Made by a program: the position numbers and the translations under genes
In this document: one piece after another, positions 2,148 through 10,062 of the stretch
Position numbering within the stretch: the stretch's first letter is position 1
Layout: each line of letters begins with the position of its first letter
From: Candidatus Omnitrophota bacterium
Lineage (GTDB): Bacteria > Omnitrophota > Gorgyraeia > 2-01-FULL-45-10
NCBI GenBank assembly: GCA_023818895.1
Contig: JAMWCX010000003.1
Coordinates: forward strand, 289,446 to 321,445
Length of the DNA stretch: 32,000 nucleotides
Direction: 5' to 3'
Notes under the pieces: model-generated
What the model was told of the DNA's origin: nothing
The model's input: the letters and a program-made list of their open reading frames with translations, nothing else
The model's database searches: none

Positions 2148-3842
2148 ATGGAAAAGAGTATAACCACCAATTTCATACGCGATATAATCGACGAGCACAT
2201 AAGAATCGGTCGTTTTGGCGGCAGAGTACATACACGTTTTCCGCCAGAGCCTAACGGATATCTTCACATAGGCCACGCTAAGGCCATTTGCATAAGCTTC
2301 GGCATAGCGCGAGACTACAACGGCCTTTGCAACCTGCGGATGGATGACACAAACCCAGAGAAAGAGGAGTCCGAATATGTAAACGCCATAATCGAGGATG
2401 TGCGTTGGCTCGGTTTTGACTGGGGCGATCGCCTTTACTACGCTTCGGATTACTTTGAAAAGCTTTACGGGTACGCACTCGAGCTGATAAAACTCGGAAA
2501 GGCCTATGTCTGCGACCTTAACGCTGAACAGATCCGGGATTTTAGAGGCACCCTTACCGAGCCCGGGAAGAATTCTCCGTTTCGCGACCGTTCCGTAAAG
2601 GAAAATCTCGATCTTTTTGAGCGCATGAGAAAAGGAGAATTCCCGGATGGCAGCCGCACCTTGCGCGCAAAGATAGACATGGCAAGCCCCAATATCATAA
2701 TGCGAGATCCGGTTCTTTATCGCATAAAGCGGGAAAATCACCACAGGACAGCGGATAAGTGGTGCATTTATCCAATGTACGATTTCGCCCATTGTCTTTC
2801 CGATTCGATAGAAGGTATAACCCATTCCATATGCACCCTTGAATTCGAGAATAACAGACCGCTTTACGACTGGATACTCGACCAGTTGAAGGTCCACCAT
2901 CCCCAGCAGATAGAATTCGCCAGGCTCAACCTATCGCACACAGTTCTTTCTAAGCGTAAACTTTTACAGCTGGTGCAGGATTCAAATGTAGAGGGCTGGG
3001 ATGATCCGCGCATGCCTACCATATCGGGCTTAAGGCGCCGTGGCTACACGCCGTCTTCAATAAGAAATTTTTGCGACAGTATCGGCGTGTCGAAGGTAGA
3101 TTCCATAGTTGATATTACCGTGCTGGAAAACACTATACGAGAGGAACTTAACAAGAGTGCGCCGCGAGCGATGGCGGTAATAAAGCCGCTCAAAGTCGTC
3201 ATAACCAACTACCCCGAAGGCAAAACTGAGGAGCTGGAGGCTATAAATAATCCAGAGGATCTATCAGCCGGTACACGCAAAGTGCCTTTTTCGAGAGAGC
3301 TTTATATCGAACAGGAAGATTTTCAGGAGACCCCCCCGCCTAAATTCTTCAGGCTTTCGCCAGGTAAGGAGGTCCGGCTGAGGTACGCCTATTTCGTGAA
3401 ATGCATAGGGGTCGTTAAAGACCCAAAGACGGGCCAGATCATCGAAGTCCATTGCACCTATGACCCGGCTACGCGCGGGGGAGACGCGCCTGACGGACGC
3501 AAGGTCAAGGCTACGCTCCATTGGGTGTCCGCTCGCCATGCCATAGAGGCCGAGGTCAGACTGTATGAGCTTCTCTTTACAGCAAGAAACCCCAATGATG
3601 TGCCGGAGGGCGTAGATTTCAGATCCAATCTGAACCCCAAGTCGCTTGAGATACTTAAAGAAGCCAGGCTTGAGCCATTCCTCAAAGATGCCCCACCAGG
3701 CAGCCGTTATCAGTTTGAGAGGCTGGGGTATTTTTATCTAGATCCGGTTTTTGCAAAGGCGGGAAAAAGAGTCTTTAACCGAATAGTTACCCTTAAAGAT
3801 AGTTGGGCGAAGGAGGCTAAAAAGGGCCTTGAAAAGCGTTGA
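2148..3842 (+). CDS. glnS: glutaminyl-tRNA synthetase
   Basis: 564 aa. FIRDIIDEH...[18 protein letters not shown] (HIGH), VLSKRKL (KMSKS), and the C-terminal beta-barrel anticodon-binding region typical of GlnRS. Starts 9 nt after gltX. Confidence 0.93.
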
Positions 3843-3867
3843 AAATCGGGCGCTTTTGATATAGAAT
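3839..3867 (+). promoter_or_regulatory. candidate sigma70 promoter for tRNA-Gln (TTGAAA-N17-TAGAAT)
   Basis: TTGAAA 3839-3844, 17-nt spacer, TAGAAT 3862-3867. Overlaps the glnS stop codon, about 100 nt upstream of the tRNA. Confidence 0.4.
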
Positions 3868-3967
3868 TTAGAGGCGATTTTTCGTAATGTTTGCGCCGAT
3901 ATGTCCGCAATGCCTCTTCGTATATTTCTTAACGGCGTTTTGGTGTCAGAATTTATCTCGCAAACAC

Positions 3968-4041
3968 TGACGGGTAGTGTAACGGCAGCACAGCAGACTC
4001 TGGATCTGCTTGTCTAGGTTCAAATCCTAGCCCGTCAGCCA
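3968..4041 (+). tRNA. tRNA-Gln (anticodon CUG), CCA encoded
   Basis: Hand-folded cloverleaf. Acceptor TGACGGG/CCCGTCA (U1:A72, G73 discriminator as in bacterial tRNA-Gln). Anticodon stem GCAGA/TCTGC with loop CTCTGGA. T arm CTAGG-TTCAAAT-CCTAG. 3' GCCA. Confidence 0.9.
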
Positions 4042-4070
4042 ATATAAAAAATCCTCCTGTAGCTTGAGAT

Positions 4071-4183
4071 GCTAGGATTTGAAACAAAATTTGCGCCGAC
4101 CAACGGGAGGAAAAGGCCTCTGGCCGTAAGCAAATTTTGATGGTCTGAAGCCACCTCTGGCGGATGAAGACCAAATCCTAGCC
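4071..4183 (+). ncRNA. tRNA-linked structured element, copy A (Gln-associated); unknown family
   Basis: Aligns with 5117-5220 of the Leu-linked units. Shared blocks: ATTTGCGCCGAC, GGAGGAAAAG, CCTCTGG, CGTAAGCAAATT, GGTCTGAAGC, GAAGACCAAATCC. Helices: H1 GCTAGGATTTG 4071-4081 / CAAATCCTAGC 4172-4182; H2 CAAAATTTGC 4085-4094 / GCAAATTTTG 4130-4139; H3 CGGGAGG 4104-4110 / CCTCTG 4117-4122; H4 GGTCT 4142-4146 / AGACC 4168-4172. The strand is inferred from co-orientation with the tRNA and the downstream terminator. Confidence 0.55.
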
Positions 4184-4193
4184 AGGCAATAAT

Positions 4194-4229
4194 AAAGACT
4201 CTACAAGTACTTCTGGGGAAGTCTTTTTA
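4194..4229. terminator. candidate bidirectional terminator (tRNA-Gln/element on +, dedA-like gene on -)
   Basis: AAAGACT 4194-4200 pairs with AGTCTTT 4220-4226. It is followed by T's on the + strand and preceded by A's (T's on the - strand). The 19-nt loop is large, so this is weak. Confidence 0.35.
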
Positions 4230-4240
4230 TTTGCGAATAT

Positions 4241-4861
4241 TTATTTCAGATACTTGATCGCTAGAAAACCGCCGACGAGGAGCAGGATAAATACGATAGA
4301 GAATATATCGAAATATTTCTCGATCGTATTTTCTATCTTCTTGCCGAATATCCTCAGGGCACCTGCGACGATAAAGAACCGGCCGGCCCTGCCTATGATA
4401 GAGGCTGTCACAAGTGTTAGAAGCGGGATTCTGAAAAGTCCGGCGGCGATTGTTATAACTTTATAAGGTATTGGCGTGAAAGCGGCGGTGAAGATCGTCA
4501 AGAACGCGTTCTCCGCGTATTTTCGACCCACAACATCCATCATCGGCTGCAGATGGTATGTGTTTACTATGAGTTTTCCCACCGTTTCATATAGGCTCCA
4601 ACCTATGAAATAACCGAAAAACGCCCCTGTTACAGATCCGACCGTGCATACCGCTGCGTCAACTATCCACCTTTTTCTGTTCGCCACTACCATTGCGATA
4701 AGGAGAATATCTGGAGGGATAAGGAAGAACGAGCTTTCGATAAATGCGATGCCGAATAGGGCATACGGAGCCTGGGGTGTCTTTGCCCAATGCAGTGTCC
4801 AGTCATATAGATATCTGAAGAAACGTATCGGCAGTATTATTATGTCCGCAACCATCCGCAT
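4241..4861 (-). CDS. DedA/YqaA-family (SNARE-associated) integral membrane protein
   Basis: 206 aa, multi-pass hydrophobic. ...FGIAFIESSFFLIPPDILLIAM...FTPIPYKVITIAAGL... matches the DedA/YqaA signature regions. AAGGA lies upstream of the ATG. Confidence 0.8.
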   Translation of the reverse strand: MRMVADIIILPIRFFRYLYDWTLHWAKTPQAPYALFGIAFIESSFFLIPPDILLIAMVVANRKRWIVDAAVCTVGSVTGAFFGYFIGWSLYETVGKLIVNTYHLQPMMDVVGRKYAENAFLTIFTAAFTPIPYKVITIAAGLFRIPLLTLVTASIIGRAGRFFIVAGALRIFGKKIENTIEKYFDIFSIVFILLLVGGFLAIKYLK

Positions 4862-4948
4862 ATTCTTTTGGGCCTTTCCTTAAAAATCGCTTTCGTATAT
4901 TCTACCAATATCCTAAAGCTATGCAAGGTATTTCGGAGAGAAAACTGC

Positions 4949-4977
4949 TTGATATTTTAAGCCTGCCTCACTATAAT
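4949..4977 (+). promoter_or_regulatory. sigma70 promoter of the tRNA-Leu/element/tRNA-Glu operon (TTGATA-N17-TATAAT)
   Basis: TTGATA 4949-4954, 17-nt spacer, consensus TATAAT 4972-4977, about 28 nt upstream of tRNA-Leu. Confidence 0.65.
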
Positions 4978-5004
4978 AACATGGTAAAAGTTCGCTCTTT
5001 TTAC

Positions 5005-5089
5005 GCGGAGATGGTGGAACTGGCAGACACGCATGTTTGAGGGGCATGTGCCGCAAGGCTTGGGGGTTCAAATCCCCCTCTCCGCACCA
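5005..5089 (+). tRNA. tRNA-Leu (anticodon GAG), long variable arm, CCA encoded
   Basis: Acceptor GCGGAGA/TCTCCGC. Anticodon stem CATGT/GCATG with loop TTGAGGG. Variable arm TGCCGCAAGGCT. T arm GGGGG-TTCAAAT-CCCCC. 3' ACCA. Confidence 0.9.
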
Positions 5090-5233
5090 TGTTGTTTGAT
5101 AGTAGTAACGGCAGAAGGGATTTGAAGCCAATTTGCGCCGACGAACAGGAGGAAAAGTCCTCTGGACGTAAGCAAATTGGCCGGTCTGAAGCAAGCTATG
5201 CGAGCGGAAGACCAAATCCCCCTCTCCGCACCA
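5090..5233 (+). repeat. tRNA-linked structured element, 144-nt unit 1 (Leu-associated); ends with a copy of the last 21 nt of tRNA-Leu
   Basis: Identical to 5234-5377. Helices: H1 GGGATTTG 5117-5124 / CAAATCCC 5213-5220; H2 GCCAATTTGC 5127-5136 / GCAAATTGGC 5172-5181 (10 bp perfect); H3 CAGGAGGA 5146-5153 / TCCTCTG 5158-5164; H4 GGTCT 5183-5187 / AGACC 5209-5213. The 3' tail CAAATCCCCCTCTCCGCACCA equals tRNA-Leu 5069-5089. Confidence 0.9.
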
Positions 5234-5377
5234 TGTTGTTTGATAGTAGTAACGGCAGAAGGGATTTGAAGCCAATTTGCGCCGACGAACAGGAGGAAAA
5301 GTCCTCTGGACGTAAGCAAATTGGCCGGTCTGAAGCAAGCTATGCGAGCGGAAGACCAAATCCCCCTCTCCGCACCA
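5234..5377 (+). repeat. tRNA-linked structured element, 144-nt unit 2 (exact tandem copy)
   Basis: Base-for-base identical to 5090-5233 by eye. Followed by a 7-nt spacer and tRNA-Glu. Confidence 0.9.
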
Positions 5378-5384
5378 TAAACCT

Positions 5385-5462
5385 GGCCCCATCGTCTAGC
5401 CCGGCCTAGGACGTTAGGTTCTCAGCCTAAAGACCGGGGTTCAAATCCCCGTGGGGCTACCA
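5385..5462 (+). tRNA. tRNA-Glu (anticodon CUC), CCA encoded
   Basis: Acceptor GGCCCCA/TGGGGCT. D region TCGTCTAGCCCGGCCTAGGAC is typical of tRNA-Glu. Anticodon stem TTAGG/CCTAA with loop TTCTCAG. T arm CGGGG-TTCAAAT-CCCCG. 3' ACCA. Confidence 0.88.
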
Positions 5463-5555
5463 CTTATCATAACTCAAGTTTGTAACCACGCCCAATAAGG
5501 TCGGCAAAATTCGAACCTCAGTTCAGTATCGAGCGGATGAAGCGGCTTCAGTTTA

Positions 5556-5606
5556 TTTCGAAAATCGAAAAAAAAATTTCGAAAGCACTTGACAAAACTT
5601 TCGAAA
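5556..5606. promoter_or_regulatory. three copies of the palindromic octamer TTTCGAAA (candidate operator array)
   Basis: TTTCGAAA at 5556-5563, 5577-5584 and 5599-5606, spaced 21 and 22 bp. The third copy lies inside the promoter spacer of the HspR-like gene. Confidence 0.5.
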
Positions 5607-5617
5607 TATGATATATT
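5589..5617 (+). promoter_or_regulatory. sigma70 promoter with extended -10 (TTGACA-N17-TATATT, TG at -15/-14)
   Basis: TTGACA 5589-5594, TGATATATT 5609-5617, 25 nt upstream of the ATG at 5642. AGGAGG RBS at 5627-5632. Confidence 0.65.
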
Positions 5618-5641
5618 TTTTTCGGAAGGAGGAAGAGGCGT

Positions 5642-5938
5642 ATGAAGCGCAAAACTGTGGCAAACGAAGCGGAATCAGCAGGTATCAGCATGGACGAGCC
5701 GATAATGACCACAGGGGTGGTGTCGGGTATTCTTCATATGCCTCTATGGGTTCTCAAACAGCTCGACAAGCATAAGATAGTTTCGCCAAAACGCAGGAAA
5801 GGGATGGGCAGGCTGTATTCTCAAAGAGAATTTAACAAGTTAAAGCATATATGGTATTTAATGAAAGTTCGCCGTGTGAAGGTTGATGGGATTAAAGTTA
5901 TATTAGAGATGGAAGCAAAAGGATATAAGACGGTATAA
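5642..5938 (+). CDS. MerR-family HTH regulator, HspR-like (heat-shock repressor type)
   Basis: 98 aa. The core ...VVSGILHMPLWVLKQLDKHKIVSPKRRKGMGRLYSQREFNKLKHIWYLMKVRRVKVDGIKVILEME follows the HspR/MerR pattern (HTH, ..VSP.R...G.R.YS..D...L..I, ..V.L.GI..I.E.E). Sits at the head of a small-HSP cluster. Confidence 0.7.
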   Translation: MKRKTVANEAESAGISMDEPIMTTGVVSGILHMPLWVLKQLDKHKIVSPKRRKGMGRLYSQREFNKLKHIWYLMKVRRVKVDGIKVILEMEAKGYKTV

Positions 5939-6536: not shown

Positions 6537-6905
6537 ATGGCACTAGGTCTTAAAAAGAATGCCAAGCAAACCTTAGCGCAGATAGCTCCGCTGGTAACCG
6601 TGCGTGAAACAGATAAAGAGGTTATCCTCGAAGCCGAAATGGCGGGTCTGGATAAAGATAGCATTAAAATAGAGTTAAAAGGCGATGAACTCACGATAGG
6701 GGGTGTCCGTAAAAATGAAGATGTACCGAAGGGCTACACACCTCTTAGCAGAGAAAGATGCCCATTCGAGTACTCGCGGACGTTTGTACTGGGCAATGAG
6801 GTGGATAAAGAAAAGCTGAGCGCCCAGTATAATGACGGTGTTCTTAAAATCACCGTGCCCAAAAGTGAGAGTAATCAGCCAAAAAAGATACCTATTAAGG
6901 ATTAA
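6537..6905 (+). CDS. small heat-shock protein, Hsp20 family (paralog 2, short N-terminus)
   Basis: 122 aa. VRETDKEVILEAEMAGLDKDSIKIELKGDELTIGG...YNDGVLKITVPK. The translation-initiation region GAAAGGGGGTGTTAAGTTATGGCACT is nearly identical to that of paralog 1. Confidence 0.85.
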   Translation: MALGLKKNAKQTLAQIAPLVTVRETDKEVILEAEMAGLDKDSIKIELKGDELTIGGVRKNEDVPKGYTPLSRERCPFEYSRTFVLGNEVDKEKLSAQYNDGVLKITVPKSESNQPKKIPIKD

Positions 6906-6980
6906 GAATGGCGGGCGCCTGAGGCCTAGAAGGACTGCCTCACGCGCCCAGGAGCTATGTGTTTCGAGGTGGTGAAGACA

Positions 6981-7628
6981 ATGAAGATGAAAATATTGAT
7001 CGGAGTGGTTATTCTGCTTTTATTAGTGCTGATCGGAGAGACGGCATATATTCTGTATATAGGGAAAGAACCGAATAGAGTAGGTATCCAAAAGACATCA
7101 AAAGCTCCGCATTCAATAGTTTCTCTCAAAAGGCATCCTATTACCCTATACGAAGAGGCCTATGACGAATGGGATCCTTTTGAAGAGATGAGGCTTATGC
7201 AAGCGCAGATGAACCGAATATTTAGAAATAGTTTTTCCCGCGCCTTGCTGAGTCAAGCATTTCCTGTGTCAAAACGAAGCGCTTTTTTTGAGCCGGATAT
7301 AGACTTTGAAGACAGCGGTAAATTCTATATAGCAAGAATAGACCTCCCCGGGATGGATAAAGATAAAATAAATATAGAACTAAAAAATAACATGCTGACC
7401 ATATCGGGCGAAAGGAGTATAGAGCGCGAAGAGGCTCGACCTGCCGATCAATTCTATTCTAAGGAAAGAAGTTTCGGATATTTTTCAAGAACTATCCCGA
7501 TGCCGGCTGACGCCAAAAGCGAGGGCATGACGGCAGAGTATGACAAAGGGGTGCTTGTAATAAAAATTCCGAAGGAAGACGTAGGTGTATCAACTCAAAA
7601 GGCATCCACAAAAATCAGAGTAGATTAG
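6981..7628 (+). CDS. Hsp20-domain protein with an N-terminal hydrophobic anchor or signal (paralog 3)
   Basis: MKMKILIGVVILLLLVLIGETAYILY is followed by a roughly 90-aa linker and an alpha-crystallin domain (PDIDFEDSGKFYIARIDLPGMDKDKINIELKNNMLTISGER...AEYDKGVLVIKIPK). ATG 6981 follows GAGGTGG; the track start 6957 is possible. Confidence 0.8.
   Translation: MKMKILIGVVILLLLVLIGETAYILYIGKEPNRVGIQKTSKAPHSIVSLKRHPITLYEEAYDEWDPFEEMRLMQAQMNRIFRNSFSRALLSQAFPVSKRSAFFEPDIDFEDSGKFYIARIDLPGMDKDKINIELKNNMLTISGERSIEREEARPADQFYSKERSFGYFSRTIPMPADAKSEGMTAEYDKGVLVIKIPKEDVGVSTQKASTKIRVD

Positions 7629-8433: not shown

Positions 8434-10062
<1,629 letters not shown>

Follow-up and report, generated by a model that had tools for sequence, protein, structure and literature searches.

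The 32,000-nt window of Omnitrophota DNA analysed here carries three copies of an element that belongs to a family of small non-coding cassettes, found in Omnitrophota and matching no described RNA family. At the 3' end of each element the final 21 nt of the upstream tRNA, running from C56 in the T-loop to the CCA, recur as a duplicate, and an invariant anti-T-loop segment at the 5' edge, GGAUUUGAA, pairs with the T-loop part of this duplicate. Covariation strongly supports the fold. The most probable explanation, to which we assign a probability of about 0.6, is that of a new small structured cassette which is co-transcribed with the tRNA and was inserted with duplication of the tRNA 3' end. 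The relevant features of the window are the following.

3839..3867, plus strand: promoter-like site TTGAAA-17-TAGAAT, 5' of tRNA-Gln (consensus match only)
3968..4041, plus strand: tRNA-Gln(CUG), 62.7 bits; T-loop C56 at 4021
4021-4041, plus strand: last 21 nt of tRNA-Gln, the source of the duplicate (sequence comparison)
4042..4070, plus strand: leader between tRNA-Gln and H1, 29 nt
4071..4182, plus strand: core of the Gln-linked copy, 112 nt (covariance model, 94.2 bits, and covariation)
4071-4081 with 4172-4182, plus strand: H1 of the Gln copy (model alignment)
4085-4094 with 4130-4139, plus strand: H2 (model alignment)
4096-4101 with 4105-4110, plus strand: hairpin A, with tandem G.A pairs 4098.4108 and 4099.4107
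4111-4114, plus strand: AAAA (model alignment)
4115-4118 with 4122-4125, plus strand: hairpin B, loop UCU
4143-4171, plus strand: H4 (model alignment)
4172..4190, plus strand: duplicate of the tRNA-Gln 3' end, 15/17 identical; 4172-4183 equals 4021-4032
4184-4190, plus strand: AGGCAAT, the decayed acceptor part of this duplicate (other Gln copies have the full CAAATCCTAGCCCGTCAGCCA)
4194..4229, no strand assigned: AT-rich hairpin and U-run, z -2.7 on the plus and -3.2 on the minus strand
4241-4861, minus strand: DedA/VTT gene, convergent to the element, with the hairpin 4194-4229 between the two
4949..4977, plus strand: promoter-like site TTGATA-17-TATAAT (11/12), 28 nt 5' of tRNA-Leu
5005..5089, plus strand: tRNA-Leu(GAG); its last 21 nt and one more base (5069-5090) recur after each unit
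5090..5233, plus strand: unit 1 (leader 5090-5113, core 5114-5223, tRNA-Leu 3'-end duplicate 5213-5234), 113 bits
5234..5377, plus strand: unit 2 (core 5258-5367, duplicate 5357-5378), 100% identical to unit 1
5385..5462, plus strand: tRNA-Glu(CUC), 7 nt past the last duplicate

The first-pass annotation had read the DNA behind tRNA-Gln as a divergent third copy, and this copy is real: 4071-4182, beginning 29 nt past the tRNA, is homologous to the two identical Leu-linked copies, with blocks 92% and 74% identical. The fold z-scores of the window copies (-4.8 and -5.6) and the score of the Gln copy against a covariance model made from the homologs (94 bits, E ~1e-20) indicate that the element is not due to chance. 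The part of its leader at 4058-4070 (TGTAGCTTGAGAT) is similar by eye to the leader start of its closest relative, at locus L031 (TGTAGCTTAACTG). We rejected a protein-coding repeat: the 106-aa ORF that covers both Leu-linked units (5089-5409) is open only because 144 nt make 48 codons, the homologous units measure 143-153 nt with no conserved reading frame, and substitutions within the family keep pairing, not codons. The terminator-like hairpin proposed downstream of the Gln copy does exist, as a fold with z -2.7 followed by a U-run; however it is rich in A and T and was passed over by the terminator scan, which likewise called no terminator between tRNA-Leu and tRNA-Glu. The hairpin may serve as a two-way terminator between the element and the DedA/VTT gene. 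Given the promoter-like sites and this hairpin, a single transcript of tRNA-Gln and the element is plausible.

The search for further copies covered ~240 kb of Omnitrophota loci and yielded 27 full-length copies in 19 loci, 24 distinct sequences of which form the covariation set. The units are 143-153 bp long with identical boundaries in the 19 loci. All 27 copies lie directly 3' of tRNA-Leu (22), tRNA-Gln (4) or tRNA-Glu (1), on the strand of the tRNA; copies away from tRNA genes were looked for and none was present within the ~240 kb searched. Most Leu copies were retrieved through a tRNA-Leu 3'-end repeat pattern that required a perfect duplicate, so that the integrity of the duplicate is biased in those copies, while three Gln copies were found without any duplicate requirement.

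The closing helix had been described as re-tailored to the neighbouring tRNA. In the window its 3' strand is indeed tRNA-Gln sequence (4172-4183 being identical to 4021-4032), 4071-4083 forms a perfect 13-nt complement of tRNA-Gln 4019-4031, and a tabulation over the family, in which four different tRNA 3' ends are represented, shows that H1 matches the neighbouring tRNA without exception. This is no free design of the helix: H1 tracks the neighbouring tRNA because its 3' strand is the tRNA duplicate itself, and because the tRNA 3' end is duplicated the upstream tRNA is left intact. Three Gln copies share 21/21 nt with the tRNA end and the Glu copy 20/21. In loci L046 and L048 the tRNA-Leu has a different 3' end, TTCAAGTCCTGTCCCGCGCACCA, and the elements there terminate in this very sequence, with GGACTTG in place of GGATTTG; the variant T-loop CAAGU thus faces GGACUUG, a compensatory change from U:A to C:G. 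At this pair, 8-115, 23 sequences have UA and 1 has CG. An extension of H1 into the acceptor part of the duplicate was also considered and gave no family-wide signal, being confined to a few copies, that of the window included.

Direct repeats of a tRNA 3' end starting in the T-loop are the classical signature of tyrosine integrases, and the repeats found here, of 21-24 nt from C56 and beside an intact tRNA, are of the kind left by an integrative element. The elements resemble prophages and islands in this repeat, which runs from the T-loop to or just past CCA, in the intact tRNA, in the tandem accretion at one tRNA and in the decay of the far repeat. They differ in being only ~145 bp and gene-less, with no integrase nearby and with a covarying folded interior, and in having a 5' edge complementary to the repeat. 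Furthermore, the repeat changes with each new tRNA: no fixed attP is seen, since near-identical cores end in Leu, Gln, Glu or variant-Leu sequence according to the local tRNA, whereas a classical element with its own attP would not automatically gain the 3' end of a new tRNA on switching target. The earlier objection to an att scar, that identity with the tRNA stops where H1 ends, is true only of the decayed Gln copy of the window and does not survive the comparison with the family, as the Leu copies of the window share 22 nt with their tRNA and the whole 21-nt tRNA end, CCA included, is present in the Glu copy and in three further Gln copies. The Gln copy of the window is an old copy, which has lost the acceptor part of the duplicate and kept H1 and the core.

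In the MAFFT alignment 88% of the cells of the proposed helices are paired, versus 24-45% when the partners are slid, and 19 of the 34 pairs change on both sides, a value reached by none of 500 shuffles; in the model alignment both-side changes occur in 26 of 41 pairs. H1 covaries heavily among the 24 distinct sequences, and so do H2, for which three compensatory pairs between the Gln and Leu copies had been noticed, and H4, which is 31 nt long in both variants. The helix formerly called H3 (CAGGAGG/CCTCTG) has to be abandoned; its bases are present, but only 63.5% are paired, no pair changes on both sides and 135 of 500 shuffles are as good. Covariation replaces it by two hairpins, one of the form C-C-G.A-A.G-C and one of 4 bp with a triloop. 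The predicted fold consists of two nested three-way junctions, in which H1 closes H2 and H4 and H2 bears the two small hairpins, and the tandem sheared G.A pairs, the A-rich junction strands and invariant unpaired nucleotides are conserved. A binding partner, if there is one, would probably touch the tandem G.A motifs and the two hairpins, whose UNU triloops are closed by C-G. Mismatches within the helices are G.A in 105 cells and C.U in 0, indicating that the tRNA-sense strand is the folded one. Covariation thus supports a conserved secondary structure on one strand, as expected of a structured non-coding RNA.

No known RNA family accounts for this structure. Rfam 15, searched at E up to 10 over 3900-5600 of the window and also applied to the 19 related loci, gave no match to the element; only tRNA and a single cobalamin riboswitch scored, and the hammerhead, twister, HDV-like, retron msr, HEARO/omega RNA, Y-RNA-like and tmRNA models did not match it. 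A hammerhead or other known ribozyme was rejected on this lack of an Rfam signal and on the CUGA-like string in H4, which is not conserved. ARAGORN called no additional tRNA and no tmRNA, and the models of the Rfam tRNA clan saw no resemblance to tRNA in the element; a tRNA-like structure or minihelix was rejected too, the acceptor part of the duplicate being unpaired with the leader (mean z +0.2). The 3' external transcribed spacer RNAs, YrlA and mascRNA are similar in arising from or next to tRNA transcripts and in having tRNA-derived ends, but they mimic a folded T-arm and acceptor, whereas in the element an ordinary helix takes up the T-loop sequence and the acceptor part is unpaired. Patterns made from the blocks of the window copies (GCGCCGAC.AAC ... 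CGTAAGC ... GTCTGAAG) gave 14 chance matches in the viral collection, 0 in the metagenome collection and 3 chance matches in the genome collection; these blocks are not conserved across the family. A family-wide pattern gave 5 chance matches in viral contigs, none confirmed by the covariance model. In the literature we found no earlier description of the element or of a closing helix copied from a neighbouring tRNA.

The distribution of the copies points to turnover. Every Gln or Glu copy has its closest match in a Leu copy from a different genome (82-95% identity) and agrees with the Leu copy in the same genome at no more than 51-77%, which suggests that cores move or recombine. Divergent units occur within one array (L033), some sites are empty (L020, L044, L045 and L047), others hold truncated remnants (L019, L022, L045, L048 and L051), and L046 and L048 share tRNA and leader (84% identical) with cores only 60% identical. 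Such mosaic cores could reflect recombination among resident paralogs instead of transposition. According to Pfam in the window and the gene tables of the related loci, none of the arrays has a gene for an integrase, transposase or reverse transcriptase in its vicinity; Phage_integrase has no match in either, the units hold no integrase remnant, and crude matches to integrase and reverse-transcriptase motifs proved to be antisense junk. The sole recombinase is a large serine recombinase in L048, ~700 nt past tRNA-Glu, with no link to the element.

A MITE or other non-autonomous transposon was rejected. Correia, RUP, ERIC and other MITE-like elements and REP/BIME are likewise short, non-coding and repeated, with inverted-repeat ends that form a closing helix, and are often co-transcribed with neighbouring genes. 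They have, however, dispersed sites, target duplications of 2-9 bp and ends of their own, whereas the right arm of the element is tRNA sequence, its duplication is at least 21 nt, its fold is multi-junction and all 27 copies follow a tRNA in the ~240 kb of loci searched.

Thus, we propose a cassette made of a ~25-nt leader, a ~112-nt core and a duplicate of at least 21 nt of the upstream tRNA end. As it lies inside the tRNA transcription unit and on the strand of the tRNA, it is probably made within the tRNA precursor. In H1, GGAUUUGAA at the 5' edge would pair with the T-loop stretch of the duplicate at the opposite end; the 5' strand of H1 matches the T-loop common to these tRNAs, with between one and four additional pairs, or else one T-to-C change, fitted to the local tRNA. 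The distribution suggests that cores are exchanged between tRNA genes and genomes and that tandem units multiply via recombination between the tRNA-end repeats. In the Gln copy of the window the part of the duplicate dispensable for the fold would have decayed, with H1 and the core retained.

In an unlikely alternative, the element would work as a regulatory or decoy RNA on the tRNA that precedes it in the same transcript: the duplicate would compete with the genuine 3' end for the 5' half of the tRNA, and the anti-T-loop segment would capture the T-loop. The precursor would toggle between the normal tRNA and a "tRNA with giant T-loop insertion", and the junction core might sense a protein or ligand. 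Of six contexts whose duplicate is intact, five give this swapped form as the minimum-energy prediction for tRNA plus unit, computed to be 4-8 kcal/mol better than the parts folded separately, but these energies are only predictions and co-transcriptional folding is expected to lead to the normal tRNA. Complementarity links GGAUUUGAA to 9 nt of the tRNA T-loop region, UUCAAAUCC, and two of its A's, unable to pair in the H1 of the element, are nevertheless invariant in 26 of 27 full-length copies. The duplicate always matches the local tRNA, and its acceptor part is unpaired within the element and so free to interact; against this, the Gln copy of the window is without the acceptor part and its core is still full-scoring. 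The patchy distribution, with remnants and empty sites in close relatives, also weighs against regulation, and the tandem copies and core swapping look selfish.

We consider it just as unlikely that the element acts as folded single-stranded DNA, a substrate for structure-specific recombination, similar to integron attC, CTX attP or the ends of IS200/IS605, in which H1 rebuilds the tRNA T-loop duplex for a recombinase from elsewhere. G.U pairs are nearly absent, at 4 of 885 helix cells (0.5%), and rarer than A.C, a scarcity that is atypical of RNA and in keeping with DNA hairpins. Also present are GNA triloops closed by C-G, among them the mini-hairpin GCGAAGC, which are unusually stable as DNA hairpins. 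Integron attC and CTX attP offer a parallel for such a substrate, with structure rather than sequence conserved, cassette-like arrays and a folded strand that rebuilds a duplex recombination site; here H1 reproduces 7-13 bp of the target duplex, the units stand in tandem arrays and the cores are swapped like cassettes between conserved arms. The element differs from both in having no integron integrase or Xer link seen and no cargo gene, and in having the tRNA T-loop as its site and a long duplication. Moreover, there is no tyrosine or HUH recombinase near any array, and A-rich junction strands and tandem sheared G.A pairs, both conserved here, are features typical of RNA. The element is without exception sense-oriented within the tRNA transcription unit, and a recombination site that brought its tRNA end along would not automatically exchange it for another.

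It is improbable that we are dealing with an RNA-guided, protein-less mobile element, whose anti-T-loop segment recognises tRNA T-loops, in the gene or the transcript, and whose 3' end is rebuilt from the adjacent tRNA by target-primed copying or template switching at the H4/H1 stack. This would be a bacterial counterpart of SINEs and R2, with tRNA genes as safe harbours. A retro-mobile, protein-less passenger copied by a reverse transcriptase encoded elsewhere is similarly improbable. The RNA would be freed from the tRNA precursor, CAAAUCC would pair with the nicked T-loop region of a tRNA gene and a second-strand cut at or just past the tRNA end would duplicate C56 to CCA, so that a new copy would automatically receive the local tRNA 3' end. 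The left edge of the duplicate lies at C56 in 25 of 26 copies and its right edge varies (CCA+0, +1, +3, about +8 and +15), as in R2 retrotransposons and SINEs, where one edge of a variable-length target duplication is fixed. These also sit in a host structural-RNA gene and are co-transcribed with it, as predicted here, and their 3' end carries target sequence able to prime copying. The duplicate is re-tailored at every tRNA change, the unit has no mobility gene, units in Leu context start right after the tRNA CCA and end at CCA, the cuts expected from tRNA processing, and in the Gln copy of L027 the leader is cut to 10 nt. However, R2 and SINEs are eukaryotic and have an identified reverse transcriptase, whereas none was found near any copy or is linked to the element, and we know of no precedent in bacteria for a retro-mobile protein-less element. 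In addition, the 6-16 extra nt that separate tRNA-Gln from the leader have no second copy behind the duplicate, and those Gln copies therefore do not fit a simple staggered-cut model; recombination among resident copies can also mimic movement.

Finally, functionless attL/attR scars of ordinary integrase islands at a tRNA hot spot, although they would explain tRNA 3'-end repeats starting in the T-loop and the other small inserts with partial tRNA-end repeats in the same tRNA cluster, are very improbable in view of the 26 of 41 covarying pairs, the invariant unpaired nucleotides, the same unit boundaries in 19 loci, a unit of only ~145 bp without integrase remnant, and a core that outlasts the decay of its duplicate in the Gln copy of the window.

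The cassettes constitute a well-supported folded family from an uncultivated phylum, and are a ready target for structural and biochemical work. One strand of the closing helix is copied from the T-loop and T-stem of the neighbouring tRNA, so that H1 covaries with a separate gene, an arrangement of which we found no report. Repeats of tRNA 3' ends are normally read as integrase footprints; here they flank gene-less units of 145 bp and re-adapt to each tRNA, which implies either a novel insertion route or a repeat held identical to the tRNA gene by copying between both, and which affects the calling of islands and att sites. The strand-swapped fold, if true, would represent a new form of same-transcript interference with tRNA maturation. 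Nuclease genes, as well as the other small inserts with partial tRNA-end repeats, are also found in the Gln-Leu-Glu tRNA cluster. With its several small elements and nuclease genes, this cluster lends itself to studies of the colonisation of tRNA genes by very small elements.

The studied element occurs three times in the tRNA cluster behind GltX and GlnS, once after tRNA-Gln and twice in tandem after tRNA-Leu.

Local gene order, element copies and promoter-like sites in the window
ahead of GltX, first in the local order: pyruvate:ferredoxin oxidoreductase subunit gene
813-2138: GltX
2148-3842: GlnS
3839-3867: promoter-like site
3968-4041: tRNA-Gln(CUG)
4071-4182: Gln copy, 112 nt, starting 29 nt past tRNA-Gln
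4241-4861, minus strand: DedA/VTT membrane protein gene
4949-4977: promoter-like site
5005-5089: tRNA-Leu(GAG)
5090-5233 and 5234-5377: Leu units, two identical 144-nt repeats
5385-5462: tRNA-Glu(CUC)
after tRNA-Glu: MerR-family gene, three Hsp20 genes, GroES/GroEL

The first-pass annotation had described a third, divergent copy after tRNA-Gln, and 4071-4182 is indeed homologous to both Leu units. Its reading of compensatory changes in H2 also held, with three pairs differing between the Gln and Leu copies, as did the constant length of H4 (31 nt in either variant) and the identity of the 3' strand of the closing helix H1 with tRNA-Gln: 4172-4183 equals the tRNA from T-loop position C56 through the T-stem 3' strand, and 4071-4083 complements the T-arm perfectly over 13 nt. 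Both variants give folds far better than those of shuffled sequences (z -4.8 and -5.6). At the end of each Leu unit the tRNA-Leu 3' end is repeated over 22 nt, a feature that had not been stressed, and CAAATCCCCCTCTCCGCACCAT is therefore present three times (5069, 5213 and 5357). A 106-aa ORF through both units (5089-5409) was rejected as coding, being not conserved in homologs, whose units measure 143-153 nt; it spans both units only because 144 nt equal 48 codons. Elsewhere in the window, TTTCGAAA palindromes lie on both sides of a strong promoter-like site, TTGACA-17-TATATT (5556-5627), upstream of the MerR-family gene (5642-5938) and the hsp20 and groES/groEL genes, and probably mark a heat-shock operator.

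The family is real, well supported and apparently undescribed. Rfam gave no family match even at E up to 10, scans of viral, metagenome and genome collections with window-specific sequence blocks returned chance matches only, and a literature search found no earlier description of a tRNA-trailing element family of this kind. The window is chromosomal Omnitrophota DNA, with a GlnS 100% identical to a 'Candidatus Omnitrophica' MAG protein at NCBI, and the relatives of this GlnS at about 80% identity are all from Omnitrophota. The closest on record, in the related locus L018 (6552 nt), is a product of 832 aa in which the catalytic domains are duplicated; it has two GltX-like genes upstream and no tRNA genes downstream, and may be an assembly or gene-calling artefact. 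Among syntenic loci reached via GlnS homologs the tRNA cluster proved variable: L020 is an empty site, since merely 28 nt separate tRNA-Leu from tRNA-Glu, and L019 holds between these tRNAs a different tandem element of 2 x 180 nt, also ending in the tRNA-Leu 3' end. A metagenome search for two tRNA-Leu 3'-end copies at 106-166 nt spacing yielded 18 loci, in which 17 of the 19 units between the repeats are clear homologs of the window's element; most Leu copies come from this search, which demanded a perfect repeat. A covariance model built from 18 sequences recovered 26 full-length copies in 18 loci and one in L048, with E-values that are rough because of a shortened calibration. No copy was found in the roughly 240 kb searched other than directly downstream of a tRNA and on its strand.

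In the MAFFT alignment 88% of cells are paired, against 24-45% with the partners slid, and in 19 of 34 pairs both partners change; the covariation score of 0.39 compares with 0.12 in shuffles and was matched by none of 500. In the model-fitted alignment 26 of 41 pairs have both partners changed; this alignment is biased toward the model's own structure, and the MAFFT result is concordant with it.

Parts of the fold
H1: universal 7-bp core, GGAUUUG with CAAAUCC, plus 1-4 tRNA-specific pairs
junction strand: two nearly invariant A's
H2: 10 bp; GC-rich variants have tandem G.A pairs in place of two U-A pairs
hairpin A: C-G, C-G, G.A, A.G, C-G
single strand between hairpins A and B: AAAA
hairpin B: 4 bp with triloop UCU, UAU or UCC
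single strand after hairpin B: GACA or GUAA
H4: base of 4-6 bp, purine-rich internal loop, distal stem with triloop

The tandem G.A of hairpin A is invariant in all 24 distinct sequences and a C-G pair of this hairpin becomes G-C in 7 of them; in hairpin B three of the four pairs covary, and H4 is stacked directly on the H1 3' strand with no linker. The helix H3 (CAGGAGG/CCTCTG) proposed in the first-pass annotation does not stand as a family helix, being 63.5% paired with zero both-side changes, a shuffle-level result. Helix cells contain 105 G.A mismatches and no complementary C.U, which identifies the tRNA-sense strand as the folded strand. The G.U pairs are very rare (4 of 885 cells); this scarcity is odd for RNA and is the main argument for single-stranded DNA as an alternative.

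The copies that decide how H1 follows the tRNA are those recovered without any requirement on the duplicate, the copied tRNA 3' end that closes each unit. The Gln-linked copies of L021, L027 and L035 terminate in the complete tRNA-Gln 3' end, CAAATCCTAGCCCGTCAGCCA. The Glu-linked copy of L033 (6616-6731, minus strand) terminates in CAAATCCCCATGGGGCTACCA, which is identical at 20 of 21 positions to the local tRNA-Glu (6781-6858) and fully identical to a tRNA-Glu allele common in other genomes; it has CCCCA, the allele of most other genomes, versus CCCCG in the local gene, which suggests that this copy was imported along with its duplicate. In L046 and L048 the tRNA-Leu has a different T-arm and acceptor, TTCAAGTCCTGTCCCGCGCACCA, the elements end exactly in TTCAAGTCCTGTCCCGCGCACCA, and GGACTTG replaces the otherwise invariant GGATTTG (alignment pair 8-115). 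Thus, the H1 3' strand is part of a duplicate of the last 21 nt of the upstream tRNA, starting at C56 in 25 of 26 copies, and the earlier proposal that the closing helix tracks its neighbour is borne out. The H1 5' strand is complementary to the T-loop common to these tRNAs, and its outer pairs match the local tRNA unevenly from copy to copy, suggesting compensatory change after arrival and not automatic templating.

H1 5' outer segments
window and L027: GCUAGG
L035: GUUAGG, with a G.U pair
L021: UUGAGG
Glu copy: AGGAGG

The claim that identity to the tRNA stops where H1 ends, raised as an objection to an insertion-type duplication, applies to the Gln copy of the window and to no other; the objection is overturned by the family, including the complete ends in L021, L027 and L035. 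In the window's copy the acceptor part has diverged, with AGGCAAT replacing CGTCAGCCA. Over the family as a whole the acceptor part of the duplicate shows no pairing with the leader and is therefore dispensable for the fold; its decay fits an old copy with H1 and core intact at 94 bits.

The distribution of the element is mosaic and patchy. Each Gln or Glu copy is closest to a Leu-linked copy of another genome (82-95% identical); with the Leu copy of its own genome it shares no more than 51-77% identity. A single array in L033 contains two identical units and a third at 75% identity, with a fourth family member after tRNA-Glu. L046 and L048 have identical tRNA-Leu genes and leaders 84% identical, but the identity of their cores is only 60%. 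In its 5' domain the L046 core looks nearly the same as the core of L037, which has the other tRNA-Leu type as its neighbour; the two share CGCTGA and GGAAGAAAAG, which are rare variants. Of the nine loci reached without bias via GlnS, three (the window, L046 and L048) have an intact copy after tRNA-Leu, truncated remnants are found in L019, L045, L048 and L051, and no copy follows tRNA-Leu in L020, L044, L045 and L047; L022, from the repeat search and not via GlnS, also has a remnant. Identical tandem units (window, L026, L033) are the expected product of unequal recombination between tRNA-end repeats. In L037 (1-1120) an entire stretch comprising tRNA-Leu, element, trailer and tRNA-Glu seems to recur with an 854-nt period. 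In L051 (6969-7037) only the leader and GGGATTTGAA are left after tRNA-Leu, with no core and no duplicate, and together fold into a perfect 'antisense T-arm' hairpin, GTGGG-ATTTGAA-CCCAC, which is either what a deletion left behind or a hairpin for docking.

The element is folded on the tRNA-sense strand; every copy lies downstream of a tRNA and terminates in the 3' end of that tRNA, and the duplicate would represent an insertion footprint. Nothing similar to an integrase, transposase or reverse transcriptase is encoded in the 32-kb window. Staggered-cut or target-primed copying would account for the automatic re-tailoring and for a duplicate with a fixed edge at C56 and a right edge that varies (CCA+0 to about +15), but no reverse transcriptase is linked, and the additional nucleotides ahead of Gln copies are not repeated. 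A classical attP-carrying element would explain why there is a repeat, why the tRNA is intact and why the far copy decays; however, it leaves unexplained how the repeat becomes each new tRNA's own, and no integrase lies nearby. A third possibility is gene conversion between tRNA end and duplicate, combined with recombination among copies already resident; we prefer none of the three. In its repeat logic the element is like tRNA-targeting integrative elements, and in size and absence of genes it is like MITE-like repeats. As in attC and CTX sites, structure is conserved rather than sequence, and as with R2 or SINE elements a host RNA gene carries it along; it does not show the full defining features of any of these.

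Other small elements are found at the related tRNA clusters.

Other elements at the tRNA cluster
L019 9315-9674 (2 x 180 nt) and L027 1112-1273 (minus strand): second structured element, 162-180 nt, after tRNA-Leu
L019 9675-10079, L044 5704-5967 and L023 (between last tRNA-Leu duplicate and tRNA-Glu): GIY-YIG cassette
L048 about 6945-7019: ORF-less version of this cassette
L030 1647-2171, L031 about 1850-2498 and L047 6104-6829: ORF with YWAEGY motif
L044 about 4700-4790 and about 5603-5700, L021 about 9990-10040, L024 about 1540-1620, L020 7800-7890 and L022 442-579 (minus strand): GATCC-TGA element
L025 1029-1167 (minus strand), identical sequence in L028, and L034 650-859: conserved hairpin element ATGCCCYGTACCGGAGG ... 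CTGGTACGGGGCA, between tRNA-Leu duplicate and tRNA-Glu
L048 7778-9352 (minus strand): large serine recombinase

The 162-180-nt element is unrelated to the studied family, ends in a tRNA-Leu 3'-end copy from A57, closes by pairing GGGGG and GCGG with the duplicate's CCCCC and CCGC, and has a fold z-score of -4.5. The cassette between the tRNA-Leu array and tRNA-Glu encodes a GIY-YIG nuclease of 83-96 aa (Pfam PF01541, E 1e-15), and its inverted ends, TACTWCGCC ... GCGAAGTARG, resemble the H4 stem of the family's GC-rich copies. The YWAEGY ORF (174-241 aa) abuts or overlaps the tRNA-Glu start and in L031 is preceded by a 21-nt duplicate of the tRNA-Glu 5' end; it had no match in a Pfam scan, the L047 gene table lists a faint LAGLIDADG_3 match, and it looks like a homing-endonuclease-type insertion, the mirror of the 3'-end duplications. 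The GATCC-TGA element (GATCC-TGA.. CGACGAAnAGGAG ..GAAG-GACC), without Rfam or hammerhead match, follows tRNA-Gln or tRNA-Leu, shares the C-C-G.A-A.G-C hairpin with the studied family and after tRNA-Gln ends in a short tRNA-end copy (CAGCCA); L022 is a chimera of the two. The serine recombinase (Resolvase, Recombinase and Zn_ribbon_recom domains, with a DUF2924 neighbour) starts about 700 nt downstream of tRNA-Glu, and nothing ties it to the element.

The element would be transcribed together with its tRNA: promoter-like sites precede tRNA-Gln and tRNA-Leu, a terminator scan called none between tRNA-Leu and tRNA-Glu, and behind the Gln copy lies an AT-rich hairpin with a U-run. In five of six contexts (including window 5005-5233, L021, L025 and L046) the lowest-energy structure predicted for tRNA plus first unit is strand-swapped: the 5' half of the tRNA pairs with the downstream duplicate, while GGAUUUGAA of the element pairs with the T-loop segment of the tRNA itself, UUCAAAUCC. 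This form is predicted to be 4-8 kcal/mol better than the parts folded separately, and solely in it are the two nearly invariant A's paired; the window's Gln copy is unable to form it. The strand-swapped fold could have a role acting on the upstream tRNA or in target recognition, or could be a by-product.
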